A stretch of 64,000 bases of DNA from a virus. Below, in pieces: positions 19,100-60,714 of this stretch; the first letter of the stretch is position 1, and every line of letters begins with the position of its first letter. Under the pieces are notes generated by a model. The model had not been told where the DNA came from and ran no database searches. It worked only from the letters and a program-made list of their open reading frames with translations. The DNA lies in IMG/VR virus record IMGVR_UViG_3300030102_007788, positions 32,001 through 96,000 of that record; one strand, 5' to 3'. The position numbers were made by a program, and so were the translations under genes.

Positions 19100-19128
19100 A
19101 TGTTATGCCTTACAGGGAGAGTGGTCAA
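19100..19128 (-). promoter_or_regulatory. CCTG-spacer sigma70-like promoter of nrdA
   Basis: TTGACC-ACTCTC-CCTG-TAAGGCA-TAACAT. Confidence 0.75.
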
Positions 19129-19129
19129 G

Positions 19130-19297
19130 TCATTTTTCGACGATTTCCAGTTTTTCTTTGACCTTTTTCTGCATGGCAGTTAAATATTTTTTTGCTTGCT
19201 GTAATCCTTCATCAGTGTGTGGGAATGCCCCATACGACCATTTTCTTTCTATAGATTCGATTAAATAATATTTTTTATTTTTTTTGTTTCTTGGCAT
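19130..19297 (-). CDS. Small basic hypothetical protein (55 aa)
   Basis: Hand-translated MPRNKKNKKYYLIESIERKWSYGAFPHTDEGLQQAKKYL...; fills the gap. Confidence 0.6.
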   Translation of the reverse strand: MPRNKKNKKYYLIESIERKWSYGAFPHTDEGLQQAKKYLTAMQKKVKEKLEIVEK

Positions 19298-19604
19298 ACT
19301 TTTTAACGAAGTTTACAATTCTTAATTCCAGTTCCATTAAATTTTTTTCAAGAATATCTAGCTGGTTATTCTCGAATTCAATCCTATTCATCAAGGAGCG
19401 CATCTCTTTTGAGTATTGCGCGTACTTTGATTCAGCCTCTTCTGTTGGGAGGTAAGAGGCCTCTGCCTCTAACTCGTCCATTTTGGCAAAAAGTTTGTTA
19501 GCCTCATCTTCCCAAAAACCGATACTATCACAGCAAAGATTAGCAGATTCTAAAAGATCTTTCTTTTTGTCTGAAAGAAGCTGTACTTGTTGTTCAAATT
19601 TCAT
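19275..19604 (-). CDS. Coiled-coil hypothetical protein
   Basis: Helical heptad pattern. Confidence 0.6.
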   Translation of the reverse strand: MKFEQQVQLLSDKKKDLLESANLCCDSIGFWEDEANKLFAKMDELEAEASYLPTEEAESKYAQYSKEMRSLMNRIEFENNQLDILEKNLMELELRIVNFVKKYAKKQKK

Positions 19605-19782
19605 TAAGTAGAGTCTTTCTGATTAATTTAAGTTTTGAGGTCATAAAACCTTCGCCGGTGTTTTGGGTGGGGTCTTCTTCTTTTTTTGTAAAATCTTCAG
19701 ACTGAGAGAACTCTATGAGTTGTTCTATTAGCTGTATCACTTGGTCGTGGGCAGCTTGAGTTATGATAACATCGTTAGTCAT
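19594..19782 (-). CDS. Hypothetical protein
   Basis: ORF directly downstream of a predicted promoter. Confidence 0.6.
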   Translation of the reverse strand: MTNDVIITQAAHDQVIQLIEQLIEFSQSEDFTKKEEDPTQNTGEGFMTSKLKLIRKTLLNEI

Positions 19783-19790
19783 TTAAAAAA

Positions 19791-19819
19791 ATTTTATTTT
19801 ATAGAAGACGGAAAGTCAA
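19791..19819 (-). promoter_or_regulatory. sigma70-like promoter without CCTG
   Basis: TTGACT-17 nt-TAAAAT. Confidence 0.6.
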
Positions 19820-19831
19820 ATACTATTACAC

Positions 19832-19856
19832 AAAAAAACCGGGCCGAAGCCCGGTT
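19832..19856 (-). terminator. Rho-independent terminator after hsp20
   Basis: AACCGGGC-TTCG-GCCCGGTT followed by a T run. Confidence 0.9.
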
Positions 19857-19862
19857 GTCCCG

Positions 19863-20231
19863 CTATGTTATTTGGATTTCCTTGGGTTTGTGCTTTTCTT
19901 TTCTTTTAAGGGTTATAGTGAGGATACCTTTGTCCAGTTTTGCCTCTACTGAAGACGTGTCTGCTTTCTCTGGTACTCTGTAGGTTTCTCCAAACTTAAC
20001 TTCCTTCCCCCGCCTTTTGGTTTTTCCTTGCAAGTTGAGGTGTCCGGTATTGTCAATTTTGATGCTGACATCTTTCTTATCAAAACCGGGCATTTCTACC
20101 TCGAACACATAATCTCCGTCCTCTTCAAAAAAATAATTGTTTTCTTCGTGGAAGGCTCTTTCGATGTCGGTGAATAACGGCGTTGCGAAATCGAGCAAGC
20201 CCCTGCTAAAAGATGTACTTGGCGTATACAT
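19863..20231 (-). CDS. Hsp20/alpha-crystallin small heat shock protein
   Basis: EVEMPGFDKKDVSI, VEAKLDKGILTITL. Confidence 0.92.
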   Translation of the reverse strand: MYTPSTSFSRGLLDFATPLFTDIERAFHEENNYFFEEDGDYVFEVEMPGFDKKDVSIKIDNTGHLNLQGKTKRRGKEVKFGETYRVPEKADTSSVEAKLDKGILTITLKRKEKHKPKEIQIT

Positions 20232-20243
20232 ACGATTTATTAT

Positions 20244-20260
20244 AGCAGCGGGTGTGCCAA
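20244..20260 (-). promoter_or_regulatory. sigma54-type -24/-12 promoter of hsp20
   Basis: TTGGCACACCCGCTGCT with exact GG-N10-GC spacing, about 12 nt upstream of the ATG. Confidence 0.65.
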
Positions 20261-20336
20261 CTTGGCATGGCGCTGTTTTTCCTAGGAAAAATGAAGGTTT
20301 TAATTTTTAGGTGTGGAACAACTGAGACATTTTGAA

Positions 20337-20558
20337 TCAAGGTGTCTCATAAGATAGGGACCTTATGTCATACATGGAAACAACTTCGGTTTCAAGAGGG
20401 TTTTCGAATTTAGAAATTTCAAAGTATTCTTCGTCAATGACTCTCTCTACTTTTCCTTTCCATTTTGATCCGTCTTTGGCGCGGACAACAAGAACTTGAT
20501 CCCCCACCATTTTTGAGTTGTAAGACATTAAGTCTTTTTTTGAATTGTTAGTGTCCAT
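20337..20558 (-). CDS. Small SH3/Sm-like hypothetical protein
   Basis: VLVVRAKDGSKWKGKVERV beta pattern. Confidence 0.5.
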   Translation of the reverse strand: MDTNNSKKDLMSYNSKMVGDQVLVVRAKDGSKWKGKVERVIDEEYFEISKFENPLETEVVSMYDIRSLSYETP

Positions 20559-20559
20559 T

Positions 20560-21033
20560 TTATCTACCGGAACTGCCAAATCCGCCTTCGCCTCTTTGGC
20601 TATTTTCTAATGTTTTCATTTCAATCCATTCTGGCGTGTGGCAACTTTCAATTATGAGTTGAGCCACTCTATCGCCGGGTTTTACGTCAAACTTGTTAGC
20701 TGAACCGAACATAGACTCGTAAACACTCGGCTTTAAATTATAGCCTTCAAAGTTTAGGTTTATCAATAAAATTTTTATTTCACCCCGATAACCTGAATCC
20801 ACGACCCCAGCCATGACATCTATTCCTCTTTTTACAGCCAGTCCACTTCTAGGGGCAATCCGTCCATAAAAACCTTCAGGAATTTCTACGCTAATTCCTG
20901 TCGAAATTAATGTTCTTTGGCCCGGCTCCAAAGTGGCGTACTCTGTTGAAAAAAGGTCAAACCCGGCATCAGAAGTGTTAGCTCGGTAGGGAGCTAAGGC
21001 TTCTTTGTTTATTTTTTTATAATTTATTTTCAT
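20560..21033 (-). CDS. dut: Trimeric dUTPase
   Basis: AGFDL, PRSGL, GVVDSGYRGE, RVAQL, RGEGGFGSSG. Confidence 0.97.
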   Translation of the reverse strand: MKINYKKINKEALAPYRANTSDAGFDLFSTEYATLEPGQRTLISTGISVEIPEGFYGRIAPRSGLAVKRGIDVMAGVVDSGYRGEIKILLINLNFEGYNLKPSVYESMFGSANKFDVKPGDRVAQLIIESCHTPEWIEMKTLENSQRGEGGFGSSGR

Positions 21034-21434
21034 AGTTTAACGCAGTCAATTCCGTAAAAATCAAAAATGTTTAACGCCGCGACATCTCTATCATAAACTT
21101 CTTCATAGACGACTTTTTTAACACCGTATGCTGCTATCATAGTAGCACATGAGGAGCATGGAAGTAGCGTGCATGCAAGGAGATTTACTTCCCCTCTTTT
21201 GACTAAACTCAAGCAGTTAACCTCAGCATGAATCATATAGGGTCTGCGGTGGTTTCGGTTCCGAAAAAATTGATACGAGACATCTTTTCCCGGAGCTAAA
21301 CCGTTGTAGCCAACTGCAACTATCATATTTTTGCTGTTAAGAGCACAGGCTCCGACTTTTTTGTAGATGTCCTCACTCCTTTGCGCAGCGGTCCTAGCAA
21401 TATCTAACGCGTATTTTTCCCAAGAAACTCTCAT
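21030..21434 (-). CDS. dCMP deaminase
   Basis: VGYNG, HAEVN, PCSSC. Confidence 0.92.
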   Translation of the reverse strand: MRVSWEKYALDIARTAAQRSEDIYKKVGACALNSKNMIVAVGYNGLAPGKDVSYQFFRNRNHRRPYMIHAEVNCLSLVKRGEVNLLACTLLPCSSCATMIAAYGVKKVVYEEVYDRDVAALNIFDFYGIDCVKL

Positions 21435-21453
21435 AATCTTCCTTAAAAATCAC

Positions 21454-21482
21454 AACCTAAATCAAACAGGTTGCCAAATCAA
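21454..21482 (-). promoter_or_regulatory. CCTG-spacer promoter (leftward)
   Basis: TTGATT-TGGCAA-CCTG-TTTGATT-TAGGTT. Confidence 0.65.
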
Positions 21483-21495
21483 GAAAAAAAAGTTG

Positions 21496-21525
21496 TTGAC
21501 TTCCCTGCCTGAGTCAATTACAGCT
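21496..21525 (+). promoter_or_regulatory. CCTG-spacer promoter (rightward, before the structured element)
   Basis: TTGACT-TCCCTG-CCTG-AGTCAAT-TACAGC; weak -10. Confidence 0.55.
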
Positions 21526-21815
21526 TGCTCACGTAGCACTTCCGTCTTGCTACGGTAAAAGGTAGGCGGATCCGCAATCTATGTGTCCGGCTCTGCTGTG
21601 GAGACTTGCAACCGGAGGAACTAACTGGCGTGAAAAGGGCGCTTCGTTAGGCGAGTAGTATAGGCGATGTCATATGGGTGGAAACTACCACGCACCCAAA
21701 AAAGGCTAGCCGGGGAGAATTCTCAGGGAAAAGTAAAAAGATTGCCGATGTTCTGGAATAGCCGCCAAAACGGGGAAAGTCTCCGTTTCACTTCGACTTT
21801 CTAGGGAAAAGTTTT
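21525..21815 (+). ncRNA. Candidate structured non-coding RNA, family not recognised
   Basis: GC-rich non-coding island with at least six stems, following a predicted promoter. Confidence 0.55.
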
Positions 21816-21857
21816 ATATATATTTATTTATTTAACTATAGTTAACTTTAATTAAAC

Positions 21858-22454
21858 ATGGATTTTAATTACAAAAATATAGGTATATCCGGGGTCGCAG
21901 GATCCGGCAAAAATACTCTAGCTGAAATACTGGGGCTGTTTTTTTCTAGATTACAGTTGCCGATTAAAGAGCTTTCAATTGCAAGGAACTTAAAGCAGGA
22001 GATAAGCCCCGTCTGTAAGAGTCTTTATTCTATTGATTCTCTTAATTGCTCCAGAGAGGAGAAAAATTTAATCAGACCTATGCTGGTTGCTCACGGAGAA
22101 ATAAAAAGAAAAATGACAGAGGGTACTCATTGGACCTCATTACTGGAGAAAGATTTAGAAAAAGATAAAATAAATATTATTACCGACATAAGATACGCTG
22201 AATATCCCGAGGATGAATATTTTTGGCTTACAAAAAAAGCAAACGGCGTATTGATTCACGTTTCAAGGTACGACGAAATCGATGGAGAAAGACATTTCAT
22301 AAAACCTGCAAATCCGTCTGAGGAGAAAAACGACCATCGAGTAAAAAAATTATCAGATTTTTCCTTAAATTGGAAAACTGAAAAGAATTATGGAGATATG
22401 ATCTTTAACTGCCGAAAATTACTCAAGTGGCTTAAAAAAATATATGTCGAATGA
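21858..22454 (+). CDS. Deoxynucleoside monophosphate kinase
   Basis: GISGVAGSGKNT P-loop; IITDIRYAE. Confidence 0.85.
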   Translation: MDFNYKNIGISGVAGSGKNTLAEILGLFFSRLQLPIKELSIARNLKQEISPVCKSLYSIDSLNCSREEKNLIRPMLVAHGEIKRKMTEGTHWTSLLEKDLEKDKINIITDIRYAEYPEDEYFWLTKKANGVLIHVSRYDEIDGERHFIKPANPSEEKNDHRVKKLSDFSLNWKTEKNYGDMIFNCRKLLKWLKKIYVE

Positions 22455-22884
22455 TACCGTAGAGGATAGTTTATGCCAACCTATCGTAGCTTATTGCGGT
22501 AGAAATGCTAGTATAAATTTTTCCCCTGAAAATGCCAATAAAGCTTTAGGTTTTTCTTTCGACAATCACTACGCTTTATTCAATTATGAGATTCGAATAG
22601 TAAGATTCAACGGTAAAGATGTAAAAGCAACAGAAAATAATGAGAATTATTATCTAGTAGAAATTTTCATATGCTCAGATGACTTGAATGATGATTCTTT
22701 TTGCGATTCTTATATTTTCAGAGAAGAAAATTTAGAAGATTTAATTGAGTATGTTATAATATTGCCACGTCTCTTTAAAAGACACCATCGTTATGTTCTT
22801 GCCATGGAGAGAGATGACGTGTGTTTTTTTAAAGATTTCGGGTATAAGGTTGACTTATGGAAACAGGCTGCTGGGATAATATAA
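22444..22884 (+). CDS. Hypothetical protein
   Basis: ORF in operon. Confidence 0.55.
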   Translation: MSNDTVEDSLCQPIVAYCGRNASINFSPENANKALGFSFDNHYALFNYEIRIVRFNGKDVKATENNENYYLVEIFICSDDLNDDSFCDSYIFREENLEDLIEYVIILPRLFKRHHRYVLAMERDDVCFFKDFGYKVDLWKQAAGII

Positions 22885-23456
22885 CGGATAATTGTCTAGT
22901 AAATAATGTAAAAAATAGCAATTGTGAGGAAAGCTTACTAGAACTGTCAAACAGGCATACTGGACTTTGCTTCAAAATAATGAAAAAATACGCAAAGACT
23001 TTTTGCGCCAATGATATCTGCATCCAAGAAAAACACGCTGAAAAAAATTTAATTATTTGGAATTCAGCAAAGACTTTTAACACTGAAAAAAATGTAAAAT
23101 TTTCTACTTGGCTAGCCAATCAAGTTAAATACAGCTGCCTTAATGAAATTAACAAAAAGTCTAAAGACAGACTAGTAACGCTTGAAGATGAGATGCTGGA
23201 CGTGTTAAAAGATCCACCAGAAGAAGAGGATTCTGGTATCTTTGAGTATACTAATAATATTTTAAAGCAACTTCGAGATAACAGGATTCAAAACATCTTC
23301 TCAATGAGGTATTCGAAAGAGGTTAAAAAGCCTTCATGGTCTCTAATTGCAAAAAGACTTGATATCAGCACTCAAACAGCTATAAACCTACATAATAGAG
23401 GCTTGGAAATTTTAAGAAAAAAAATCAAAAGTAATAAATTTTTAGACAATGTTTAA
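22857..23456 (+). CDS. Phage-encoded sigma70-family factor
   Basis: Region 2-like AKTFN...VKFSTWLANQVK; region 4 HTH SWSLIAKRLDISTQTAINLHNRGLEILR. Confidence 0.8.
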   Translation: METGCWDNITDNCLVNNVKNSNCEESLLELSNRHTGLCFKIMKKYAKTFCANDICIQEKHAEKNLIIWNSAKTFNTEKNVKFSTWLANQVKYSCLNEINKKSKDRLVTLEDEMLDVLKDPPEEEDSGIFEYTNNILKQLRDNRIQNIFSMRYSKEVKKPSWSLIAKRLDISTQTAINLHNRGLEILRKKIKSNKFLDNV

Positions 23457-23464
23457 AAAAAGTG

Positions 23465-23493
23465 TTGACACCCCTGCCAGAGGGGTATAATAT
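23465..23493 (+). promoter_or_regulatory. CCTG-class promoter (CCAG variant)
   Basis: TTGACA-CCCCTG-CCAG-AGGGGTA-TAATAT. Confidence 0.75.
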
Positions 23494-23503
23494 ACAGACT
23501 CTT

Positions 23504-23803
23504 ATGTCTACCGAACAAAAGAACAACGACTGGAAAGAGCGTGAATTAGGCGCTCTTTGGGCAAAGAAAAGCAACAACGGTTCTCAGTACATGACTGGCC
23601 ATATTGAAGTTAAAGGGGCATCTGGAAAGGTGCAGCTCGTAGTCTTCAAAAATAAAGGCAAGTACAATGACGACGGAACTGTTAAAAGCGAGAACGCTCC
23701 CGATCTTCGCATCTATCTTAGTGAACCACGCGAGGAGCGCTCTAATAAAGCCGAGACCACGGCTGCGACTACAAACCAATCCAATAACGACCCATTGTTT
23801 TAA
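23504..23803 (+). CDS. DUF736-like putative ssDNA-binding protein
   Basis: ELGALWAKKS.NG..YMTG...PDLRIY; acidic tail ending DPLF. Confidence 0.6.
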   Translation: MSTEQKNNDWKERELGALWAKKSNNGSQYMTGHIEVKGASGKVQLVVFKNKGKYNDDGTVKSENAPDLRIYLSEPREERSNKAETTAATTNQSNNDPLF

Positions 23804-24909
23804 TGTCGGACATAGCCTTACATCTTCCAATTAACGGTGTAAGCTTTGGTCAGGTTAGCACTGCCCTTCTGCGTGAATATTACCAGAAGGGCGTGCAACC
23901 TTTTATTTTTACAATAGGCCAAGTTGACCTCAACTCACAAGAAGCGGACAAGGATTTCACCAAGTGGATAGAGTCCTGCATTAAAAAGTCCTTCGAAGAG
24001 TACAAAAGGTCTACGCCTATCTTAAAGCTGTGGCATTTAAACCATGAAAGTTTATCGTCTTACAGCAAAAGTCAGACTCTTTTTACTTTTTATGAATTAG
24101 ATCACCCTACGACATATGAAGTAAATATTGCTAAAAATCAGTCCAATATAATCGTAAGTAGCACTCACGCTAAACAAATTTTTGAGGCAGTCGGTTTAAC
24201 TAACTGCCACTACGTTCCTTTGGGTTTTGATAAAAACAATTTCAAAGTAAAAGATCAGCAATACCTTGAGGGTAAAATTGTCTTTAATCTTACTGGTAAG
24301 TTAGAAAAAAGAAAGCACCACAAAGAGGTAATTCAAGCTTGGGTTAAAAAGTACGGCAATAATAAAGACTACGTTTTGCAGTGCGCTATTACAAACCCCT
24401 TCATGAAAGAAGAGGATTTCAAGAGTAGGCTTTCCCATATACTTGACGGCAAAAGTTATTTTAATCTTAACTTTTTAGGGAGTATGCAGAAAAATGTTCT
24501 GTACAATGATTTTCTAAACTCCTCTAACATTGTTATAGGCATGTCGGGGGGAGAGGGCTGGGGCTTACCAGAGTTTCAATCTACTGCCCTTGGAAAACAT
24601 GCGGTTATACTTGATGCGCCGGGTTACCAAGAGTGGGCGAATGAAAAAAATGCTGTCATGATAAAGCCTGATGGAAAAGAAGAAGCTGCCGACGGTATAT
24701 TTTTTAATAAAGGTGGAGCTTTTAATCAGGGGAGTATATTTACCTTTAATGAAGATGAATTCATCGCTGGCTGCGAGCAGGCTGTAGAAAGATACAAGTC
24801 TTCTCCCGTAAACACCGAGGGGTTAAAACTGCAAGATGAGTTCACTTACGAAAAGACAGTCAAAAGTATCACGGACATCATGCAATCACAAGGAGAAATA
24901 AATGCCTGA
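23803..24909 (+). CDS. GT-B (GT4-like) glycosyltransferase
   Basis: GKLEKRK; GEGWGLPEFQ. Confidence 0.85.
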   Translation: MSDIALHLPINGVSFGQVSTALLREYYQKGVQPFIFTIGQVDLNSQEADKDFTKWIESCIKKSFEEYKRSTPILKLWHLNHESLSSYSKSQTLFTFYELDHPTTYEVNIAKNQSNIIVSSTHAKQIFEAVGLTNCHYVPLGFDKNNFKVKDQQYLEGKIVFNLTGKLEKRKHHKEVIQAWVKKYGNNKDYVLQCAITNPFMKEEDFKSRLSHILDGKSYFNLNFLGSMQKNVLYNDFLNSSNIVIGMSGGEGWGLPEFQSTALGKHAVILDAPGYQEWANEKNAVMIKPDGKEEAADGIFFNKGGAFNQGSIFTFNEDEFIAGCEQAVERYKSSPVNTEGLKLQDEFTYEKTVKSITDIMQSQGEINA

Positions 24910-35665: not shown

Positions 35666-35694
35666 TTGACTTACTTCCCTGTTTCGCCCATCAT
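35666..35694 (+). promoter_or_regulatory. CCTG-spacer promoter
   Basis: TTGACT-TACTTC-CCTG-TTTCGCC-CATCAT; ATG 7 nt after the -10. Confidence 0.72.
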
Positions 35695-37563: not shown

Positions 37564-37578
37564 AATAGTGTAATATTT

Positions 37579-37857: not shown

Positions 37858-39115
37858 TACCGATATAAACCAATACTACCCACAGGACGAAGTTCCTCCT
37901 GTTACTTTAACTGCTGGCGAGGCACCAGAAGCTGCTCCCGCAACACCAGAAGAACCCAAGCCAAATACTGAGGAGGCTCCAGCTACGGAACCTGTAGAAG
38001 ACTTGGGCATTGATTTACCAGATATTCCACTACCCGACGACGAACCGATAGAAGACGCGATCAAAGATACTTTTGACGATGCTGCTTTTAACTTTGCGGT
38101 TGTGGGTGTCGGGCAAGGAGGTTCTAGGCTGGCTGAGTCTTTTTGGAACTTGGGTTATCGTCGTGTTGGTGTTATTAACACCGCTCAACAGGATCTTTCT
38201 TTGATCAAAATTCCTGAATCAAATAAATTGCTAATTGGTGATGGAGGAGCTGGTAAAAATCCTGACGCCGCTGATGAGGTATTTAGAACTAGATATGAAG
38301 ACATATTAGATTTTCTTAAAAAGACTTTCGGCGCTGGATACGAAAGGGTTCTGGTGTGTGCTGGCGCAGGTGGAGGCACCGGAGCGGGAGGGGTCGCTAG
38401 GGTTTTGGAAATTTGCCATGATCTAAATCAGTCTCTCGGAAAAGAGACTAAGGATACTGACGCAAAGGTTGGATGCATTCTTGCGTTACCAACTAAAGGC
38501 GAAGGTATCAAAGTCCAAGACAACGCTAAGAAAACGACACTTAAAGTCTTAGACTTGCAAAAAGCTGGCGTTATCTCCCCGTTGGTTATACTGGACAATG
38601 AAAAAATTAAGCAGCTTTATCCCAAGCTGAGCGTAAATCAATTTTGGACTACTGCAAATAGCAGTATCTGTTCTGTATTTCATTTGTTCAATAAGATTTC
38701 CGCTAAAGAATCTGCTTATACTACTTTTGACAAAGCTGATTTGGATACTATTTTCTCATCGGGAATTATTATGTTTGGAGCAACTCCTGTTAAGGATACA
38801 TCCGAAACTGGCATTTCTTACGCCGTGAGAGATAATTTGCGTAAGAATATTTTAGCAGGCGTTGACGCATCAACCGGAAACGTTGCTGCTTGTATCATTA
38901 TCGGAGACAAAGATTCTCTTGACAATATCCCTCAGTCTAGCTTAGAACATGGGTTTGAACAATTGAGTCGGATGATGGGTTCAGGCTCAACAGTTCACCG
39001 CGGTATTTATGCTGGCGCCAAGAAAGGCGTAGCCGTTTATACTGCTATCGGAGGTCTGCAGGCACCTGAAAACCTGTTCGATTATTTCTTCAAAGTGGAC
39101 CGAGTATATAAATAG
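37850..39115 (+). CDS. Tubulin/FtsZ-superfamily GTPase (TubZ/PhuZ-like)
   Basis: VGVGQGG, INTA, GAGK, GGGTGAG signature, LDNEK, T7-like FDKADL. Confidence 0.9.
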   Translation: MSDTDINQYYPQDEVPPVTLTAGEAPEAAPATPEEPKPNTEEAPATEPVEDLGIDLPDIPLPDDEPIEDAIKDTFDDAAFNFAVVGVGQGGSRLAESFWNLGYRRVGVINTAQQDLSLIKIPESNKLLIGDGGAGKNPDAADEVFRTRYEDILDFLKKTFGAGYERVLVCAGAGGGTGAGGVARVLEICHDLNQSLGKETKDTDAKVGCILALPTKGEGIKVQDNAKKTTLKVLDLQKAGVISPLVILDNEKIKQLYPKLSVNQFWTTANSSICSVFHLFNKISAKESAYTTFDKADLDTIFSSGIIMFGATPVKDTSETGISYAVRDNLRKNILAGVDASTGNVAACIIIGDKDSLDNIPQSSLEHGFEQLSRMMGSGSTVHRGIYAGAKKGVAVYTAIGGLQAPENLFDYFFKVDRVYK

Positions 39116-41517: not shown

Positions 41518-42491
41518 AAGAAAGAATACTTTCAGCATCTAGAATTAAGACCCTCGAGACTTGTTCTTGGTCATATTGGTGCAACTATCACCTAAAAGTA
41601 CCACAGAAGCAAAATGAGGGCGCCTTACGGGGTACTGTGTGCCATCTAGTGTTTGAAATGCTTGTCAAACCCAAACATAAAAAACATTTTACTAAAATTT
41701 TAAAGGCTAGCAGTATTCACGGTAGCCCTGCTGTTTTGCGTATGGTAATGAAGCACCTCACGCAAATGGAAAAAAGCTTTGACCTACCCATGACCAATGA
41801 GGAGAACACCGAATTGGTTGATGACATGATAGTTGTAGGCCTGAACTGCGATTTTTTTGGGAAAGGAGGTAAAGTTGACAAGCCTGAGCATGAGTTTCTT
41901 CTGGAAAGTAAAGATCCCGAATACAAAATAAGGGGCTTTATTGACAAACCTATAGTCTACAAAAAAGGTAAAAAGATTAAAATTGTAGATTATAAAAGTA
42001 GTAAGTATAAATTTCGTGGGGAAGAACTGCACTCAAATGTTCAAGCGATGGTTTATACTCTGGCTGCTCAAAAAGAGTGGGAAGGTTATACCCCTACTGT
42101 AGAATTTCAATTTCTGAGACACCCCCGCAGCCCATTGCAGCAGCTACAGTTTAATAAAGAGCAGCTTCGAGGACTAGAGTATTATCTAGCTCATACTTTT
42201 TTTATTATAAATAATTTTACAGAAGAAACCGCCAAAACTAACTATGCGGCAGACACCAAGAAAAATTCTTGGCTATGTAAGATTGGAAAATGGAGATGCC
42301 CTTACTTAGATGCGTATGATTACTTTGCTATTGTAGACAAAGAAGGTAAAGAAATTAAAAGCTCTTTTAAGCGTAAAGACTTGGTAGGCAAAGTTTTAGA
42401 TGGGCAAAAAATTAAAAAAAAGAATTACCCCGGATGCCCTCGTCACGAGCCGCAAAGCGCCTCAGAGAATATCCTTGACATGTTTACCTGA
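41493..42491 (+). CDS. PD-(D/E)XK RecB/Cas4-like exonuclease
   Basis: LSASRIK..C, RGTVCH, RGFID, IVDYKS, QAMVY, C-terminal cysteines. Confidence 0.85.
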   Translation: MAQKNKDVKERILSASRIKTLETCSWSYWCNYHLKVPQKQNEGALRGTVCHLVFEMLVKPKHKKHFTKILKASSIHGSPAVLRMVMKHLTQMEKSFDLPMTNEENTELVDDMIVVGLNCDFFGKGGKVDKPEHEFLLESKDPEYKIRGFIDKPIVYKKGKKIKIVDYKSSKYKFRGEELHSNVQAMVYTLAAQKEWEGYTPTVEFQFLRHPRSPLQQLQFNKEQLRGLEYYLAHTFFIINNFTEETAKTNYAADTKKNSWLCKIGKWRCPYLDAYDYFAIVDKEGKEIKSSFKRKDLVGKVLDGQKIKKKNYPGCPRHEPQSASENILDMFT

Positions 42492-42503
42492 TTCCATTAA
42501 GCT
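42475..42503 (+). promoter_or_regulatory. CCTG-spacer promoter
   Basis: TTGACA-TGTTTA-CCTG-ATTCCAT-TAAGCT. Confidence 0.75.
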
Positions 42504-44202: not shown

Positions 44203-46780
44203 ATTTTCCAGTAGGTTTAAGTCTCTAAACGTTCCCCTACATGGAGTAAGATTACCAACGTTTACTCCTGAAAAAAAATATCTAGAAGAATATGGGGTCG
44301 ATGAATCGGCTTCTAATTTAGAATTCTTGAAGCAGATTTGCCGCAAGAGGTTCAAAGAACTCAAACTCGGGGAGAAAACGAACTCCAAAGAGTACAATGA
44401 CCGAATGATCAAAGAGCTTAACTTGATCGAAGAGTTAGGGTTCGTTGATTATATGCTTCTTGTCTGGAAGGTTATAAGATTCTGCAGGGACGGGGATATA
44501 CCCCTAGGTTTAGGAAGAGGTTCCGCTGCGGGGAGTTTGGTTTTATATCTTCTTCACGTTACCTCTATTGACCCAATCAAGTATGGTTTGTTTTTTGAAA
44601 GATTTGTTTCTAAAGCTCGCGCTAAAAAAAGTGTTGTAGATGGGGTGACTTATCTTGATGGAGACTTGATGTGTGACGTTGATATAGATGTATGTTATTA
44701 CAGGCGTCAAGAGATATTGCAGTACCTCAAACAAGAATTTGAAGGTTATAGTTCTAAAATTTTAACGCTCAACACGCTTTCCGGTAAACTTGTAATGAAG
44801 GAGTGCGGTAAAGTTGTCGCGGAGAAAAATGAAGTTGAAATGAATCAAGTGTCAGGAATGATACCTAAAATTTTTGGTCAGGTTATGGACATAGCCGATG
44901 CAAGAGAAGAGGTTCCTGAGTTTGACGAATGGTGTGATAATAATCCTAAAGTTTTTAAGATTGCTCAAAAGATAAAAGGACTGATTAAAAATAAAGGGGT
45001 TCATGCTTCAGCGGTCATGCTATCTTATCATAAAACTATAGATAGCTGTCCCTGCGAGCTTGACTCATCAAAAGAGCCTGTCTCCTCTTTTGAGGCTGAC
45101 TGGGTTAACAAATTTAATGTTAAATTAGATGTTTTAGGTTTAAGAACTTCTTCCGTGGTTCACGAATGTTGCAAAACGATTAGAGAGATAAGAGGCGAAG
45201 AGCTTTATCCCGAGACTATTGATTTAGATAATCCAGAAATTTATGAGTTATTAAATAGAGGGATGGAGGAAGGCCTCTCAAGCGGACTGTTTCAAATTGA
45301 AGGTGATTTGGCTGCTCAAACTTGCACCAAAGTTAAACCTACCAACTTTGAACATTTAAGTGCTGTTCTAGCACTAGCTAGGCCGGGAGCAATGGACTAC
45401 ATTGATCGTTATGCTGAATACGTTAACGAAAAAATCTATGAACCTGTCCATGAGTTCTTTGATGAGATCTTAGAGGAAACTGGCGGCATCGTTCTTTACC
45501 AAGAACAGATGATGAAGATGGCAAATAAAATCGGCTTCACTCTCGACGAGGCTGAAATTTTACGCCGTATTGTCGGTAAGAAAAAAGTCTCAGAAGTTAA
45601 AAAATGGAAAAAGAAGATTAGAGATAAAGTCAAGGAGAATAATCTAGCAAAGGAAATTGGAGACGTACTTTGGAAAGTATTAGAGGACTCTGCTAATTAC
45701 TCTTACAATAAATCGCATTCGGTTTCTTATGCAGCTTTAGCTGCCGCTACTGCTTACTTAAAATTTAAATATCCTCGTGAATTTTACTTGTCGTTACTTA
45801 AAATGACAAAGTATGAACCTAAACCTTTAGAGGAAATAGCCAGCATATCCCGCGAGCTAAAGTTAATGGGAATTAAATTGCTCGGGCCAAACTTATTGAA
45901 GTCTGAAATGGATTTTTCTGTCGAGGGAGAAAATATTAGATTTGGCTTAACTTCAATTAAGGGTATTGCTGAAAAGTCTATAGAAAAGCTAGAGTCTTTT
46001 AAAGACCAATACTCGAACAAGTTTGAAGTGTTCCAAGGAGCCAACCAAGCAGGGATTGGAGTAGGTATATTATCATCCCTTATTCAAGCGGGGGCTTTGG
46101 ACGGAGATATAAAGCAATCTAGAAGTAAAATAGTAGCCGAAGCACAACTTTGGAATTTACTAACAGCAAGAGAGCGTGGTCTAGTTTTTGATATTGCGGC
46201 TGAATACAATTACGATTTGTCTAAGATAGTTCAAATGATGTTTAAAGAGCTCAAAGATATCAAAGGAAAACCTTTGATTAAAGAGTCACGGATGAACACT
46301 ATCCGAAAACATTTTGCGCCGTATAAAGAAATCTACAATAAAAATAGCGCTAATGAAGATTTTGCAAACTGGTACTATGAAAACATATTACTAGGATATA
46401 CTTACGGTAAAAGATTAAAGGACGTAAGCCCCGAGTACAATCATTTAGTTTCTATTGAAGATGCTTTACAAGCAGGGGAGGGCTCAGTTTCCTTTATCGG
46501 TACTGTTGAAGATACTTGGCTAACTAAAAGTAAGAAGGGAACTCCTTACTTTAAGATAACCATGAAAGATGAATCTGCCGATTGCACCGTTATGATTTTT
46601 TCTAACAAGAAAAAAGACAACATTGAGGAATGTAAACGCGCCAACGATGGAGTGCTACCCAAAAAGGGTAATATTGTAATTATAAAAGGCGTAGTAAAAG
46701 AAGGTAATACTGTTTTTGGTAATTTAGCCAAAGTACAGGATCAAAAAATTTATATGAAATTAAGCGAGATAAAGTCTTGA
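44150..46780 (+). CDS. dnaE: DNA polymerase III alpha catalytic core (no PHP domain)
   Basis: GRGSAAGS, FERF, DVDID, KLDVLG, YQEQ, NKSH, C-terminal OB fold. Confidence 0.95.
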   Translation: MTEIVQTAKKRRGEGKNKFSSRFKSLNVPLHGVRLPTFTPEKKYLEEYGVDESASNLEFLKQICRKRFKELKLGEKTNSKEYNDRMIKELNLIEELGFVDYMLLVWKVIRFCRDGDIPLGLGRGSAAGSLVLYLLHVTSIDPIKYGLFFERFVSKARAKKSVVDGVTYLDGDLMCDVDIDVCYYRRQEILQYLKQEFEGYSSKILTLNTLSGKLVMKECGKVVAEKNEVEMNQVSGMIPKIFGQVMDIADAREEVPEFDEWCDNNPKVFKIAQKIKGLIKNKGVHASAVMLSYHKTIDSCPCELDSSKEPVSSFEADWVNKFNVKLDVLGLRTSSVVHECCKTIREIRGEELYPETIDLDNPEIYELLNRGMEEGLSSGLFQIEGDLAAQTCTKVKPTNFEHLSAVLALARPGAMDYIDRYAEYVNEKIYEPVHEFFDEILEETGGIVLYQEQMMKMANKIGFTLDEAEILRRIVGKKKVSEVKKWKKKIRDKVKENNLAKEIGDVLWKVLEDSANYSYNKSHSVSYAALAAATAYLKFKYPREFYLSLLKMTKYEPKPLEEIASISRELKLMGIKLLGPNLLKSEMDFSVEGENIRFGLTSIKGIAEKSIEKLESFKDQYSNKFEVFQGANQAGIGVGILSSLIQAGALDGDIKQSRSKIVAEAQLWNLLTARERGLVFDIAAEYNYDLSKIVQMMFKELKDIKGKPLIKESRMNTIRKHFAPYKEIYNKNSANEDFANWYYENILLGYTYGKRLKDVSPEYNHLVSIEDALQAGEGSVSFIGTVEDTWLTKSKKGTPYFKITMKDESADCTVMIFSNKKKDNIEECKRANDGVLPKKGNIVIIKGVVKEGNTVFGNLAKVQDQKIYMKLSEIKS

Positions 46781-46805
46781 CACGAAACCCTGAATCAAAT
46801 ACTCT
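46777..46805 (+). promoter_or_regulatory. CCTG-spacer promoter
   Basis: TTGACA-CGAAAC-CCTG-AATCAAA-TACTCT. Confidence 0.75.
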
Positions 46806-50486: not shown

Positions 50487-50515
50487 TTGACTTAGCTCCC
50501 TGTCTCTAATAAAGT
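50487..50515 (+). promoter_or_regulatory. CCTG-spacer promoter
   Basis: TTGACT-TAGCTC-CCTG-TCTCTAA-TAAAGT. Confidence 0.75.
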
Positions 50516-55076: not shown

Positions 55077-55085
55077 TTTTAGAAA

Positions 55086-56261: not shown

Positions 56262-56262
56262 T

Positions 56263-56409
56263 ATGTCTAGCAAAGAGCAAATTCAAGATATGATTGAGGA
56301 TTTATCCGGTTTAGATATTAGCCGCATGGGGGAAGAAGAGAGGGAAGAGGCGACTTATATTGTGAACGATATTATCATTTCTCTTGAAGAATTAATAGAT
56401 TTATTGTAG
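56263..56409 (+). CDS. Small acidic protein (48 aa)
   Basis: Hand-translated MSSKEQIQDMIEDLSG...; fills the gap. Confidence 0.5.
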   Translation: MSSKEQIQDMIEDLSGLDISRMGEEEREEATYIVNDIIISLEELIDLL

Positions 56410-56430
56410 TTTTCGAGGCACAATACTTAA

Positions 56431-56787
56431 ATGTATGAGTATAGTGCTGAAGTCCTCAGAATAGTTGACGGTGACACGGTTGATGTATTAATTGACTGTG
56501 GTTTTTCTACTTTCCGCAAAGAAAGGGTGCGTCTTTACGGTATAAACGCCCCTGAGAGCCGTACCAGAGACAAAGAAGAGAAGGTTAGGGGTCTAGCCGC
56601 CAAAGCGCGTTTAGAGGAGCTTATAAGCCTTACCTCGTCAAAAATTGTCATAAAGACGGAACTAGACAAGAAAGGTAAATATGGTCGAATACTTGGGGTG
56701 CTATGGGATGAGGATAAGAAGAAAAACTTTAATCAAATGCTTGTCTCAGAAGGGCATGCAGTAGAATATAACGGGGGCGAAAGATGA
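56431..56787 (+). CDS. Thermonuclease (SNase family)
   Basis: VDGDT, RLYGINAPE, KYGRILG. Confidence 0.92.
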   Translation: MYEYSAEVLRIVDGDTVDVLIDCGFSTFRKERVRLYGINAPESRTRDKEEKVRGLAAKARLEELISLTSSKIVIKTELDKKGKYGRILGVLWDEDKKKNFNQMLVSEGHAVEYNGGER

Positions 56788-57014
56788 CACCTGACTGCTT
56801 AGCGAAAAGAGTTTTTTTATGTTTCTTGTTGGTTATAATTTTTATTGGCTGCGCCGGATGCCATAGCGTTAAGTGGGAGTGGTTACCCCAAGGCAAAAAA
56901 TTAAAACTTAATAAAGAAGTCCCCCGTTTTTCAGACCCGCGACCTTTCATTAACGGGAGCGAAACAGGCGAGCCCACCCCCAAAGGAATAACTATTATTA
57001 AAGGCAGCTTTTAA
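56784..57014 (+). CDS. Putative lipoprotein or membrane protein
   Basis: Hydrophobic stretch ending in AGC. Confidence 0.5.
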   Translation: MTPDCLAKRVFLCFLLVIIFIGCAGCHSVKWEWLPQGKKLKLNKEVPRFSDPRPFINGSETGEPTPKGITIIKGSF

Positions 57015-57622
57015 TGAACATTGGTGTTATCAGTTTTGAGTGCCCACCAAATAACGATAGGGCTCTCAGTTTCCCAAATAAACAAAAGTATTGCGACAAG
57101 CACGGCTATACTTTTCTGTCTTATACCGAATCCTTAAATGAATATTGTCATCCATCTTGGAGTAAAATACTATATCTAATTAAACATTTGCGGGATTTTG
57201 ACTGGCTTGTATGGACTGATGCTGATACCTATATCATAAATTCTGATATAAAACTTGAAAGCTTTATTAAGAATGGTAAGGAGTTTATTATACAATGTGA
57301 CACCGAGGGAAATTATACAGCTATTAACGCAGGAGTTATCTTTGTAAAAAATTCTCAGTTCTGTTATAACCTTTTAAAAATATGGTGGGAAACACACACG
57401 ATGGAGATGTGTAGGAACCTCAATAATGATGAGTGGGAACAGCTCGGGCTTAAGTACCTAATAGGCCAGAAAGGTGAGAAGTATCAGGGTATAATTGATG
57501 TTATATTGGACGATAAAACAGGATTTAATGTTATACCGGAGTTTACAGATGAAAATACTTTTATAATGCATGCTAGAAAACCGCATAAAAACATAGAAGA
57601 TGTTAAGCATTTGATTTTTTAG
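57014..57622 (+). CDS. GT34 (Mnn10/GMA12-like) glycosyltransferase
   Basis: KQKYCDKHGY, WSKI, WTDAD, NAGV, WEQ. Confidence 0.8.
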   Translation: MNIGVISFECPPNNDRALSFPNKQKYCDKHGYTFLSYTESLNEYCHPSWSKILYLIKHLRDFDWLVWTDADTYIINSDIKLESFIKNGKEFIIQCDTEGNYTAINAGVIFVKNSQFCYNLLKIWWETHTMEMCRNLNNDEWEQLGLKYLIGQKGEKYQGIIDVILDDKTGFNVIPEFTDENTFIMHARKPHKNIEDVKHLIF

Positions 57623-57623
57623 A

Positions 57624-57875
57624 ATGAAAGATTATATAAAAAAAGCTTTAGATGACTTGGTAAAGAATAGGCCGCAAATAAACTTAGATAGTGAGGCGGC
57701 TAGAATTCAGATTGCGGAGCATGTCGCTCACTGCATAAAAGAATCTTTAGTAGAGGAAACTAAAGATAAATGTGTTATTTGCGGGTGCGTAACAGAGTAT
57801 GATAGATTTGATCATATCGATAAAAGATACTTCTATGTAGAAGGGGCCGGGCAGCTTTGCCCAGACTGTTACTAG
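57624..57875 (+). CDS. Zinc-finger hypothetical protein
   Basis: CVIC...YVEGAGQLCPDC. Confidence 0.65.
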   Translation: MKDYIKKALDDLVKNRPQINLDSEAARIQIAEHVAHCIKESLVEETKDKCVICGCVTEYDRFDHIDKRYFYVEGAGQLCPDCY

Positions 57876-57879
57876 TGCT

Positions 57880-59028
57880 TTGACAAACGTAGTTTTTATT
57901 TCTAATTTTAGTGGTCCTTCAGGTTCCGCAATAGCTGCCCGCGGTTACTTCAAAATACTTGCGACTCACCCAAAAATAAATTTAAAAGCAATAAACGCTA
58001 AACCCGAAGGGGCGATAGGCGAAGAACCTGAAAACTTTAACAGGTATCTCAGCAAAAGTCTTCCGGAAAGCTATGTCCTTATCTATCTTATAGAGCCGGG
58101 AGAACAGCATCTAACTAATGCTTGCGACCAAACCGGTTGTAACATCAGAAAAATAATACAGCATTCCACAAAATGTTTAATATTTACCGCGTGGGAATGT
58201 ATAGGTATTCCAAATACGTGGAGAAATTTTTTTAACAATTACGCAGACGAAGTAGTAACTTATTGTAATTTTCAGCAAAGAAATTTATCGGGAGAGCTAA
58301 ACAGGACTGTTAATATCATTCCTCATTTAGTATCTGTAAATACCCAAGGAACTAGCAATAACTCTAACACTGAAAAATTCAGGATATTGTCTATCTCCCA
58401 ATGGTCTGAGAGGAAGGGCTTCGATATAGCTATTCAAGCGTATTTATGTGAATTTTTTAACCACCAAGATGTAGAGTTTGTGATAAAAACTTATGGTAGA
58501 TCTGGCGTCGCTGGCGAAGACCTTGAGATAAAAAAACAAATAATGAATTATAAAGCTAACTGTTCTCGTCTTGGACAACTACCAAAATGTCAAATCAAAT
58601 TATGGGTAGCGGCTACTACATTTAACAATATAGATCGCCTCTATGATAATTGTGACTTGTACTTTTCTCCCACAAGAGGAGAGGGTTTTGGACTGACTAT
58701 TGCTGAAGCTTTAGTTAGAGGTAAAAGAGTTTTAGTCCCAGATCAAGGAGGGCATTTGGACTACATCCACCCTAACAATTATTTTATAAAAAGTCGATGG
58801 GAGACGATGAGATGTGCCGATTGGAGTATAAATTATTCATCTGAGTTTAAGTTAGTTGAACCAGATTTTGAAGATACTAGATTACAGTTAAGAAAAGCTT
58901 ACGAAGACTTTACAAATAAGAAACAAGAATGGGCAAATAAACAAGAGGCCAGCCAAAAATTTACGATGGATTATCTTTCAGAAGATAAGATAAAAAGTAG
59001 TCTAGAAAGAGTATTAGGTATAAAATAA
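57880..59028 (+). CDS. GT4 glycosyltransferase
   Basis: ERKG, RGEGFGLTIAEA. Confidence 0.88.
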   Translation: MTNVVFISNFSGPSGSAIAARGYFKILATHPKINLKAINAKPEGAIGEEPENFNRYLSKSLPESYVLIYLIEPGEQHLTNACDQTGCNIRKIIQHSTKCLIFTAWECIGIPNTWRNFFNNYADEVVTYCNFQQRNLSGELNRTVNIIPHLVSVNTQGTSNNSNTEKFRILSISQWSERKGFDIAIQAYLCEFFNHQDVEFVIKTYGRSGVAGEDLEIKKQIMNYKANCSRLGQLPKCQIKLWVAATTFNNIDRLYDNCDLYFSPTRGEGFGLTIAEALVRGKRVLVPDQGGHLDYIHPNNYFIKSRWETMRCADWSINYSSEFKLVEPDFEDTRLQLRKAYEDFTNKKQEWANKQEASQKFTMDYLSEDKIKSSLERVLGIK

Positions 59029-59033
59029 GGGCA

Positions 59034-59123
59034 ATGACGAAAAAAGAGATTATAAGTTTTTGGATACTCATACTTTTATGTATTGTATTAAACTGTTTTT
59101 TGGCCGCTAAATATTTAGTATGA
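59034..59123 (+). CDS. 29-aa single-TM microprotein
   Basis: MTKKEIISFWILILLCIVLNCFLAAKYLV; ATGA overlap with the next ORF. Confidence 0.45.
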   Translation: MTKKEIISFWILILLCIVLNCFLAAKYLV

Positions 59124-59245
59124 TTGAGCTAGCATTACAAGTTACATCGGGATTAATAATCTTTATAGCATTCATGTTTGCTTGGTCGTCTACCAGACTA
59201 GTAGAAGAAAAAAAGAAAAGAAAGAAAGATAAGGATAGTGATTAA
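59120..59245 (+). CDS. 41-aa single-TM microprotein with basic tail
   Basis: MIELALQVTSGLIIFIAFMFAWSSTRLVEEKKKRKK. Confidence 0.5.
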   Translation: MIELALQVTSGLIIFIAFMFAWSSTRLVEEKKKRKKDKDSD

Positions 59246-59432
59246 AAAACTATGGCTGATTTGGTGCAGGACGGTTGACCACCGTATCGGAAAGAATGAC
59301 GATGATGAGCCAGAAATACCTATCCTTACCCTAAAGCAAGCTCAGATAAGTCTTTTTATTAGGACTTTTATTATTCTTGTAAATTTAATTACGTGTTTTT
59401 TCATAGTAGCTAATATAATACATAAATGGTAA
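59238..59432 (+). CDS. Small membrane protein
   Basis: C-terminal transmembrane helix. Confidence 0.6.
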   Translation: MIKKLWLIWCRTVDHRIGKNDDDEPEIPILTLKQAQISLFIRTFIILVNLITCFFIVANIIHKW

Positions 59433-59728
59433 ACGAAAAAGATATCGAAAAAATCCTGAACGATCTTCTTGAAAAAGACCAGTCCGCAATGATAGCTTTG
59501 CTATCTTTAACTGTACCAACTAAAAAAGCAGTTTTGGAGGATTACGACGTTAGGTTTGGTAGTCGTGGCGGCGATTACCCTCAGCTTGGGATAATCACCA
59601 TACTAAACAAGATCATTGAGAGTTCAAATAAAAGGATTAAGTTTGATTATAGCTGCGATCCCATCAGTATGGAAATGACCCCACATAAATTTAAATTAGT
59701 GGATATAAATAAAAGATATGACGTATAA
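59426..59728 (+). CDS. Hypothetical protein
   Basis: ORF in overlapping run. Confidence 0.55.
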   Translation: MVNEKDIEKILNDLLEKDQSAMIALLSLTVPTKKAVLEDYDVRFGSRGGDYPQLGIITILNKIIESSNKRIKFDYSCDPISMEMTPHKFKLVDINKRYDV

Positions 59729-59981
59729 AGAGTTACTGTTTAAAATGGCGAGAAGGGGGATGTTGAGTCTCTCTAACGACAAAGATGGACGAGGCCTCTT
59801 CTGGATGGGTATGAGCAATATGGAAGCTCTTGAAAAAGAGTTTGATTGGAAAGATTTTGAAGGGGAAGATCCGCCTGAAAAAGAATACTACATAGACAAG
59901 CAGGGAAGAAGGCAGGAGAAGTGCGAAGACTTTGAATATAGACAGTATCCATTCAAAAGTGAATCAGAAAACGTCAAATAA
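59718..59981 (+). CDS. Hypothetical protein
   Basis: ORF in overlapping run. Confidence 0.55.
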   Translation: MTYKELLFKMARRGMLSLSNDKDGRGLFWMGMSNMEALEKEFDWKDFEGEDPPEKEYYIDKQGRRQEKCEDFEYRQYPFKSESENVK

Positions 59982-60389
59982 ACACATATTTATGAACGAA
60001 AAAAATCCAAATAAACAACTTTATATACTCGAGAATAAAGATATTACTTGGGAGTATGACGAAGATTCTCTAACTGCTAAAATTATAGAAACTTTAGATG
60101 CAATAGCTGAAGGAAGTATAAAGCTTTCTTCTCCTTATCAGCCAAATCTTGGGACAAAATATATTGGATCAGATGTAAGAAAAAGTATCGCTGAAGCAAT
60201 AGTAGATAAATTGTGAACGAAAAAACGCCAAATAAACACAATTTTACTCCACGGGAAGCCCCGAAACTTCCCGAGAATGAAAATTTTGTTTCTCATTCTG
60301 ATATACCTTGGCCCTTAATGAGCGAATGCCTAGAGCGTGATAGACAAATTCAAATTATGAACGATAAAATGCCAAATAAACACAATCTC
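59959..60389 (+). repeat. Four ~30-bp dispersed direct repeats RTGAAYNANAAAANNYCAAATAAACA
   Basis: Copies start at 59959, 59992, 60213 and 60357. Confidence 0.8.
59992..60216 (+). CDS. Hypothetical protein starting with the repeat peptide
   Basis: MNEKNPNKQL...; alternative GTG start at 59959. Confidence 0.55.
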   Translation: MNEKNPNKQLYILENKDITWEYDEDSLTAKIIETLDAIAEGSIKLSSPYQPNLGTKYIGSDVRKSIAEAIVDKL

Positions 60390-60527
60390 CCCGATGTCCG
60401 ATCATTCACATTTGACGACGATAAGAACGATTGGACTGAAGAAAGTTATCATAATTTTTATTTTTTTGAGGGTGAGGATGCCAAGGTAATTTATCATTAT
60501 TATGATACTGGTGAAGCAAAAGGTTAA
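60213..60527 (+). CDS. Hypothetical protein with two repeat peptides
   Basis: MNEKTPNKHNF...MNDKMPNKHNL. Confidence 0.55.
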   Translation: MNEKTPNKHNFTPREAPKLPENENFVSHSDIPWPLMSECLERDRQIQIMNDKMPNKHNLPDVRSFTFDDDKNDWTEESYHNFYFFEGEDAKVIYHYYDTGEAKG

Positions 60528-60685
60528 TTAACAGATTAGTTAATCTCAGGGTTAACAGTCTCGTTAACTTCATAAAAAAAATTTTTTTGAGTTGAGAGGT
60601 ATTTAATTTATCTTGTTAAAAACTACCTCATTCTTCTCATAAAAATTATTTTTTTTGACAGAGCATAAAAATATGAAAAAAGGGG

Positions 60686-60714
60686 TTGACTTGTTTCCCT
60701 GCATCAGTTATGCT
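60686..60714 (+). promoter_or_regulatory. CCTG-spacer promoter of rIIA
   Basis: TTGACT-TGTTTC-CCTG-CATCAGT-TATGCT; A/T tracts upstream. Confidence 0.78.

Follow-up and report, generated by a model that had tools for sequence, protein, structure and literature searches.

The sequence analysed here is a stretch of 64,000 nucleotides, hereafter the window, that corresponds to bases 32001-96000 of IMG/VR virus record IMGVR_UViG_3300030102_007788, which is 170,406 bp long, is rated complete and has a G+C content of 38%. The phage encodes a lambda-L-type tail protein, a class I ribonucleotide reductase, a split DnaE/PHP polymerase, RecA, rIIA and an extracytoplasmic function (ECF)-like sigma factor. 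Nine promoters in the window carry a short sequence block, CCTG in its simplest form, at one fixed place in the spacer that separates the -35 box from the -10 box, and this block heads all nine DNA-metabolism operons in the window. Judged from the sequence comparisons described below, the spacer block is a third, position-fixed promoter element under selection, and the promoters that carry it are a distinct class. Promoter spacers are usually treated as sequence-neutral, and to our knowledge the Z-element, which is weak and loosely defined, is the only described spacer element that is read by the core of RNA polymerase (RNAP). A first-pass annotation, made from the letters of the window, had pointed out the block and had rightly stated that ordinary spacers lack a strong consensus, although the RNAP-core-read Z-element had already been described (PMC3173786).

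All nine sites read exactly as first noted, with TTGA(C/T)N, 6 nt, CCTG (CCAG at 23465), 7 nt and a TAnnnT-like hexamer, and in each of them the spacer is 17 nt long and the tetramer occupies spacer positions 7-10. Primary-sigma promoters have a TTGACA-like -35 box and a TAnnnT -10 box 17 +/- 1 bp apart, and this is the layout seen here, with TTGA(C/T)N, a 17-nt spacer and mostly TAnnnT. Location at a gene or operon boundary, also claimed earlier, holds for every site except a match at 38201, and the tenth promoter, at 19819(-), was found without the block as described. Positional enrichment across the genome, which had been set beforehand as the check on the element, was present: among 81 sites of the form TTGAY-N18-[TCG]AnnnT, CCWG starts at spacer position 7 in 16, whereas the mean over the remaining 13 offsets is 0.77 (binomial p 1.2e-12 for position 7). 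In the window, TTGAY-N7-CCTG was found nine times against 0.68 expected from shuffles, and 0 of 100 shuffles reached nine; these nine matches include the intragenic one at 38201, which was not on the earlier list, the site at 23465 being the CCAG variant. The whole genome holds 12 CCTG sites, compared to 1 for a reversed-pattern control, and of its 403 TTGAC sites ten have CCTG at offset 12, whereas the count at every other offset is 0-3. Seven further copies in promoter context lie past the window end, at window-scale positions 71265, 71595, 76409(-), 77009(-), 77489, 77766 and 80772(-).

The block proved to be wider than the tetramer: spacer positions 6-8 are C, 9 and 11 are W, 10 is G and 13 is T. 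The consensus of the class reads A-tract, TTGACW-N5-CCCWGW-N-T-N4-TAnnnT, with information at spacer positions 6-11 and 13 and near zero bits at the other spacer positions. The upstream A-tracts resemble UP elements. The ATG follows the -10 box by 6-11 nt in most block promoters, often as GTT-ATG, and leaders are longer at two block promoters of the window. Our own simple rules defined gene starts and promoter sets, and transcription start sites were placed by ATG spacing.

Promoters with and without the block share the design of the -35 box, the -10 box, the A-tract and the start. They were compared in a pool of three whole genomes, which gave 25 block and 32 block-less promoters. The 17-nt spacer is nearly constant in the first group (24 of 25) in comparison to 15 of 32 block-less promoters (Fisher p 5e-5), whereas TGn was found in 1 of 25 and 11 of 32, respectively (Fisher p 0.007), and the match to TATAAT is lower in block than in block-less promoters (Mann-Whitney p 0.02). 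No block promoter of this genome carries TGn, so that block and TGn never co-occur here. Past the window, cassettes of 64-88-aa ORFans are headed by a block-less subclass that has TGn, TAtaCT and a T-rich spacer of 16 nt. This 16-nt-spacer TGn subclass is also present in relative G406; G407 instead has 16-nt spacers with a perfect TATAAT.

Relatives at 97-99% identity (here and below, identities between clades are those of DnaE to this phage) allowed seven orthologous promoters to be aligned. The block, taken as spacer positions 6-10, showed 0 substitutions in 35 positions, whereas the remaining spacer of the same promoters showed 8 in 84; the -35 box showed 0 in 42 and the -10 box 2 in 42, all of these being small numbers. 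Relatives keep the full frame of A-tract, TTGACW, 17-nt spacer, TAnnnT and near-leaderless ATG. Of the nine clades compared, each represented by a small set of 5-21 distinct promoters, eight have an information peak at spacer positions 6-11, which is weak in one of them. The block is CCCtga in this phage and its 97-99% relatives, cCCCga in a clade at 64-67%, cCAGAA, one base nearer to the -35 box, at 57-58%, ACAAGAAGT in one clade at 55% and CCCCg in a second clade at 55%, aAAAGcGT at 55-56% and TAAAAA at 54-58%, and an AT-rich clade at 54-55% has a weak A/T-rich signal. In about ten promoters of a complete 158-kb relative, spacer positions 5-13 read TTAAAAAAC. The remaining clade, at 80%, has no detectable block in its six promoters. 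In its orthologous PHP promoter CCTG has become CATG and the -10 box has improved from TAAGCT to TAGAAT, and from these sequences the improvement may be read as compensation for loss of the block.

These data bear on the explanation that the block has no dedicated reader and either tunes DNA mechanics (twist, stiffness or the response to supercoiling) or is a remnant of promoter-cassette copying. Spacer sequence can modulate promoter strength without specific contacts (review PMC10911233). However, simple or recent copying was excluded because the block is unsubstituted and the flanking spacer carries no information, and the tetramer is exact and strand-specific as well as unchanged in close relatives. 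Moreover, C-rich and A-tract blocks are physically opposite yet occupy the same place. We consider this explanation very improbable.

A separate class of promoters was recognised by the 9-mer GTGTAATAT, which occurs in about 16 copies when counted as GTGTA[AT]TA and in about 11 copies as the exact 9-mer. Nearly all copies are intergenic and lie ahead of structural or late genes, with an ATG 3-12 nt downstream, and neither a -35 box nor the block was found at these promoters; the idea of a -35 box for the late class was dropped. The copies in the window are listed in Table 1, and those elsewhere include genome positions 18297, 120084, 123188, 127992, 129088, 156036 and 161212. GTGTA is depleted elsewhere in the genome, and the GTGTAA core followed by an open reading frame (ORF) start is enriched in both whole relatives, where the block sequence has changed. 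The sigma factor gene at 22857 (sigma A) matches TIGR02937 over residues 30-190 (profile 6-165 of 165, E 3.6e-10) and itself lies downstream of a block promoter. In phage phiEco32 the ECF-like sigma gp36, itself made from a middle gene, recognises tAATGTAtA as its single element and starts transcription 6-8 bp downstream (PMC8948821). Because GTGTAAT is kept across clades with changed blocks, and in view of this precedent, the GTGTAAT class, not the block, best fits the ECF-like phage sigma, an assignment made by sequence and analogy.

A second sigma-like gene of 235 aa lies outside the window at genome 129467-130174 (+), equal to L266:568-1275, with a TIGR02937 match at E 3e-7. It sits behind a GTGTAATAT promoter and its sequence is unrelated to that of sigma A. 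Two sigma-like genes are present in relative G406 and three in G407, and the presence of several such genes suggests a sigma cascade, possibly with a fourth promoter class.

The first-pass annotation had named the sigma at 22857 as one of the candidate readers of the block. A phage sigma-like protein, either sigma A or the product of genome 129467-130174, would then recognise the block together with host-like -35 and -10 boxes and a required spacer, and the sigma A operon would be autoregulated. ECF sigmas commonly autoregulate, and sigma A is a two-domain ECF-like protein encoded behind a block promoter. Spacer sequence has also been reported to tune the selectivity of ECF sigmas (PMC5758882). 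Against this, TTGACW and TAnnnT boxes are identical in promoters with or without the block, which is typical of primary and not of ECF sigmas, and the distinct GTGTAAT class ahead of late genes persists where the block has diverged. A phage ECF-like sigma acting on a single -10-like element has, furthermore, the direct phiEco32 precedent. The sigma at 22857 is therefore disfavoured, and recognition of the block by any phage sigma appears highly improbable.

Table 1. Promoters and associated features discussed in the text. Positions are in window coordinates, and those marked as window scale lie past the window end.
Feature	Position	Strand	Remarks
Late-class copy, GTGTAATAT	3052	-	
Late-class promoter, GTGTAATAT	3968..3976	+	upstream of ORF at 3988, tail-gene region
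Late-class promoter, GTGTAATAT	12787..12795	+	upstream of ORF at 12802
nrdA leader	before ATG at 19055	-	about 38 nt with hairpin, downstream of block promoter 19128(-)
Block promoter, nrdA	19100..19128	-	TTGACC, N6, CCTG, N7, TAACAT
Block-less host-type promoter	19791..19819	-	17-nt spacer, -10 TAAAAT; upstream of 62-aa ORF; Hsp20 gene lies upstream of this promoter
GTGTAATA motif	19824..19831	-	directly upstream of -35 box of block-less promoter 19819(-); same copy as the late-class entry at 19831
Late-class copy, GTGTAATAT	19831	-	
Block promoter, dCMP deaminase/dUTPase operon	21454..21482	-	TTGATT variant, -10 TAGGTT; short leader with AAGGA
Block promoter	21496..21524	+	CCTG, -10 TACAGC; heads ORF-free stretch of about 330 nt
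Genes after ORF-free stretch of 21496 promoter		+	198-aa, 146-aa and sigma-like
Sigma A gene	22857..23456	+	199 aa, two-domain ECF-like; TIGR02937, Pfam Sigma70_r2, PHROG sigma and HTH families
Block promoter, CCAG variant	23465..23493	+	-10 TAATAT; upstream of DUF736-like gene and glycosyltransferase island
Block promoter	35666..35694	+	upstream of 127-aa gene and recA; ATG 6 nt past -10 box
Late-class promoter, GTGTAATAT	37568..37576	+	upstream of 92-aa gene; ATG 3 nt after first eight bases, 2 nt after final T
Intragenic match	38201..38229	+	in 434-aa ORF; TTGATC, N6, CCTG, N7, TAAATT; left out of class
Block promoter, PHP-domain polymerase subunit	42475..42503	+	ATG 8 nt past -10 box
Block promoter	46777..46805	+	directly after dnaE, upstream of 188-aa gene (single-stranded DNA-binding protein in first-pass annotation)
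Block promoter	50487..50515	+	upstream of 236-aa gene (annealase in first-pass annotation)
Block promoter, rIIA	60686..60714	+	ATG 10 nt past -10 box, GTT-ATG form
Block-less TGn promoters	79116, 82956, 83699, 83962 (window scale)	-	in locus L248

Among these features, the mRNA from the 35666 promoter should be leaderless because the ATG follows the -10 box so closely, and the match at 38201 is probably a chance occurrence or an internal promoter. The hairpin in the nrdA leader (19060-19095, minus strand) has a 6-bp stem, ACACCT...AGGTGT, followed by ATTTTT, and could either serve as an attenuator or terminate the gene upstream. The ORF-free stretch at 21525-21857 (+), described earlier as a structured RNA, gave no Rfam match at E <= 1 when 21400-21900 was searched, and no Pfam match was found for the 236-aa gene. 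Several other known elements were considered for the block and dropped: the TG of CCTG is in the wrong register for an extended -10, the motif is wrong for a sigma54 -24/-12 promoter, and matches to LexA or PhoB half-sites were inconsistent. Past the window, early genes include members of the Phage_L5_gp82, GP88 and DUF932 families at L248:13073-13492 (+), L248:9681-10436 (+) and L248:11414-12349 (-), families originally reported from mycobacteriophage L5-type phages. Both whole relatives keep a 324-aa AAA+ protein (L248:7622-8596) whose winged helix is RuvB-like. A run of 10 N is present at genome 97139-97148, just past the window end.

Megablast against phages gave no match and a close cultured relative was not found. 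In tblastn searches with DnaE, rIIA and tail-L the matches were about 35% identical or less, and the best rIIA matches were 147-kb roseobacter and Rhodobacter siphoviruses, at about 30% identity. Relatives were collected through DnaE and comprised 71 loci on 69 distinct contigs at 29-99% identity, 69 of the loci at 48% or higher. One of them, G406 (the 144-kb contig of L012), is labelled a provirus in IMG/VR, although the genome to which the window belongs gave no match to integrase. NrdA searched against genome contigs gave 42-52% identity for all but one match, and these matches were taxonomically scattered and held no host signal. A scan for the block pattern in 400 genomes, all from one phylum of approximately 1-Mb genomes, found no enrichment, and in 42 kb of roseophage DSS3P8, a cultured comparator, comparable near-leaderless TTGAC-N17 promoters were not found. 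Among the matches listed in a pattern scan of viral contigs most were single chance matches, and two contigs had three copies each. Neither was retained as a user of the block: G410 belongs to an unrelated phage with many promoters that mostly lack it, and the three copies in G411 are paralogous.

The sequence CCWGG is almost lost from the genome, with 1 site (genome 150026, outside the window) compared to about 175 expected. Most of the 71 related loci have 0 sites, where 10-30 are expected in those that are long enough, and this includes clades with other blocks; a link between the block and CCWGG avoidance was dropped since such clades also avoid CCWGG. The 42 kb of DSS3P8 hold 0 sites against 91 expected, and the unrelated 168-kb G410 contig (55.5% G+C) also holds 0. 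GATC and GTAC are depleted to about 0.68 of expectation. The loss of CCWGG suggests EcoRII-type restriction pressure or a phage nuclease common to these marine phages, and it may be a clue to the host.

A lineage-specific feature of host RNAP was another of the readers first suggested. The host enzyme would read the block directly through the beta' zipper, the zinc-binding domain or sigma, as an analogue of the Z-element that aids a weak -10 box, and the clades would differ as their hosts differ. The Z-element indeed occupies this part of the spacer too (functional range -24 to -18, with a contact near -21) and acts with the -35 box when the -10 box is weak, for which it has been likened to the TG motif (PMC3173786; review PMC10911233). 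The block likewise excludes TGn, is paired with weaker -10 boxes, is fixed relative to both hexamers and, where it is lost, is accompanied by a better -10 box, and no phage reader was found either among the approximately 28 early proteins or with MotA and AsiA profiles. However, the block is C-rich in some sister clades and an A6 tract in another, whereas the residues of the beta' zipper are described as conserved (PMC3173786); TTAAAAAAC and the variety of clade blocks are too long and too different and therefore fit poorly with a conserved RNAP surface. The Z-element, AACCT, lies 4 bp upstream of the -10 box, whereas the block lies 7 bp upstream and has another sequence. In the solved Taq open complex the stretch -29 to -18 is free of holoenzyme contacts, the zipper touching the phosphate at -17 (PMC4593229). 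The near-total sharing of CCWGG avoidance among clades hints at similar hosts, the CCWGG-free 168-kb phage has dozens of TTGACA-N17-TAGnnT sites of which only four carry CCTG at spacer positions 7-10, and the late promoters, which lack a -35 box, do without the block. Direct reading by RNAP is thus possible but weakened by the variation between sister clades and by the contact-free stretch, and we regard it as unlikely.

We tentatively favour, with less than even confidence, that the block marks a middle class of promoters and is read by a fast-evolving, RNAP-associated factor that is probably phage-encoded. Because the open complex is contact-free from -29 to -18, there is room for a third protein at the block, which by geometry would lie on duplex spacer DNA at about -24 to -19, approximately one helical turn from both the -35 and the -10 box. 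The CCCWG block would be a class-specific third element on promoters that are otherwise read by RNAP with the host primary sigma, and a small trans-acting protein would recognise it while working on, or docked to, RNAP at the -35 and -10 boxes; its effect, we infer, would be activation. This reader would most likely be a product of the phage immediate-early genes and would co-evolve with the block, giving each clade its own block sequence at one position. A fixed position with a drifting sequence argues for such a co-evolving, RNAP-docked protein, which would do the work of MotA while the -35 box stays in use. In the sequence of events we propose, strong block-less promoters, with a 16-nt spacer and TGn or with a near-consensus -10 box, would be served by host RNAP alone. 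Block promoters, with a 17-nt spacer and a weaker -10 box, would follow through host RNAP and the block reader, so that the block would mark a delayed-early or middle class that includes the nucleotide-metabolism, replication, recombination, rIIA and sigma operons; phage sigma would be expressed in this step. The phage sigma would then read the GTGTAAT promoters.

Several findings weigh against this model. No match to MotA or AsiA (PF09158, PF09114, PF09010) was obtained at E <= 1 in a six-frame search of the genome, nor to GcrA (PF07750) at E <= 1 or to HTH_3 (PF01381) in the phage genome, and approximately 28 early proteins compared with Pfam, PHROGs or NCBIfam contained no transcription factor except sigma. 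With about 5 bits in this genome, the block offers little to a protein that binds DNA independently. That it excludes TGn and is paired with weaker -10 boxes would fit an RNAP-core-read element equally well, as in the Z-element paper (PMC3173786), and the block differences between clades may reflect different hosts. The 80% clade manages without a detectable block, and the class split is imperfect, with seven block promoters among the small-gene cassettes past the window. In conclusion, of the first-pass proposal of a third recognition element the position-fixed, selected element itself stands, but its reader was not found in these searches. A MotA-like phage activator is the best remaining reading of the proposal; the reader would not be of the MotA family, because MotA and AsiA are absent, and the -35 box is kept.

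The block could also be an operator at which a phage repressor silences the early or middle class at a later stage of infection, in the manner of P1 C1, L5 gp71 or Cro. The operators of P1 C1 and the stoperators of mycobacteriophage L5 gp71 are multi-copy, short, asymmetric sites at the -35 box or spacer of promoters, and their sequence varies between related phages; the phages in question are temperate, their repressors are identified and the sites span 13-17 bp. Repressors classically bind between -35 and -10, a clade-specific sequence at a kept position resembles the divergence of heteroimmune operators, and the relative with TTAAAAAAC has a conserved unit of about 19 bp made up of the -35 box and the block. 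In this phage, however, no match was found to integrase (PF00589), ParB (PF02195) or Cro/CI-type HTH (PF01381), and the absence of all three makes a repressor of lysogenic immunity unlikely. The block is 5-6 bp long, its information content is low, and the weaker -10 boxes of block promoters suit activation more than repression of strong promoters. A shut-off repressor is possible, yet in our judgement quite improbable.

The proposed cascade resembles that of T4, which runs from early to middle to late with a phage sigma for late genes, and in which replication genes fall within a temporal class recognised by an additional short element upstream of a sigma70-type -10 box. In T4 the MotA box takes the place of the -35 box, with its centre near -30, whereas here the consensus TTGACW is kept, the element lies at about -24 to -19 and MotA and AsiA homologues are lacking. 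In extended -10 promoters TGn, at -15/-14, is read by sigma region 3.0, and like the block it is an auxiliary element that offsets a weak core; it is present in the block-less subclass of this phage, in contrast to the block at -24 to -19. The Z-element is AACCT-like, located at -22 to -18, and has a loose consensus and effects under 2-fold; it is read by conserved core residues and works via residues Y47/R48 (E. coli numbering) of the beta' zipper (Yuzenkova et al. 2011, PMC3173786). Both its location in the spacer zone and its role as an alternative to TGn when the -10 box is weak hold for the block as well. The block, on the other hand, lies 7 bp upstream of the -10 box as an exact tetramer that varies between sister clades, and of the functional range from -24 to -18 it covers the upstream part only. 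Like phiEco32, this phage would use host sigma70 early promoters and an ECF-like sigma made in the middle phase, with a single -10-like element (tAATGTAtA there, GTGTAATAT here) and predicted starts a few bases downstream. Unlike here, no spacer element is reported in the part of that source available to us, and gp79 inhibits sigma70 transcription in phiEco32 (PMC8948821).

The block thus defines, by an exact and position-locked spacer element, a promoter class in a family of marine phages, represented by at least 70 contigs, in which the sequence of the element varies between clades and its position is constant. The three promoter classes (block-less with TGn or a consensus -10 box, block, and GTGTAAT) give an uncultured group of phages a temporal map that can be tested. 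With lower confidence than we give the model above, these phages, a large family abundant in the sea, may possess an undescribed RNAP-associated factor that reads 5-9 bp in the contact-free middle of the spacer while sigma region 4 is kept on the -35 box, with specificity drifting into private middle-promoter codes in each clade (CCCWG, CCCCG, CCAGA, AAAGCGT and TTAAAAAAC). If a protein reads the block, this would be a new way of reprogramming host RNAP that keeps the -35 contact, unlike the appropriation of sigma by T4, and the clades would provide a natural set of orthogonal promoter/reader pairs.

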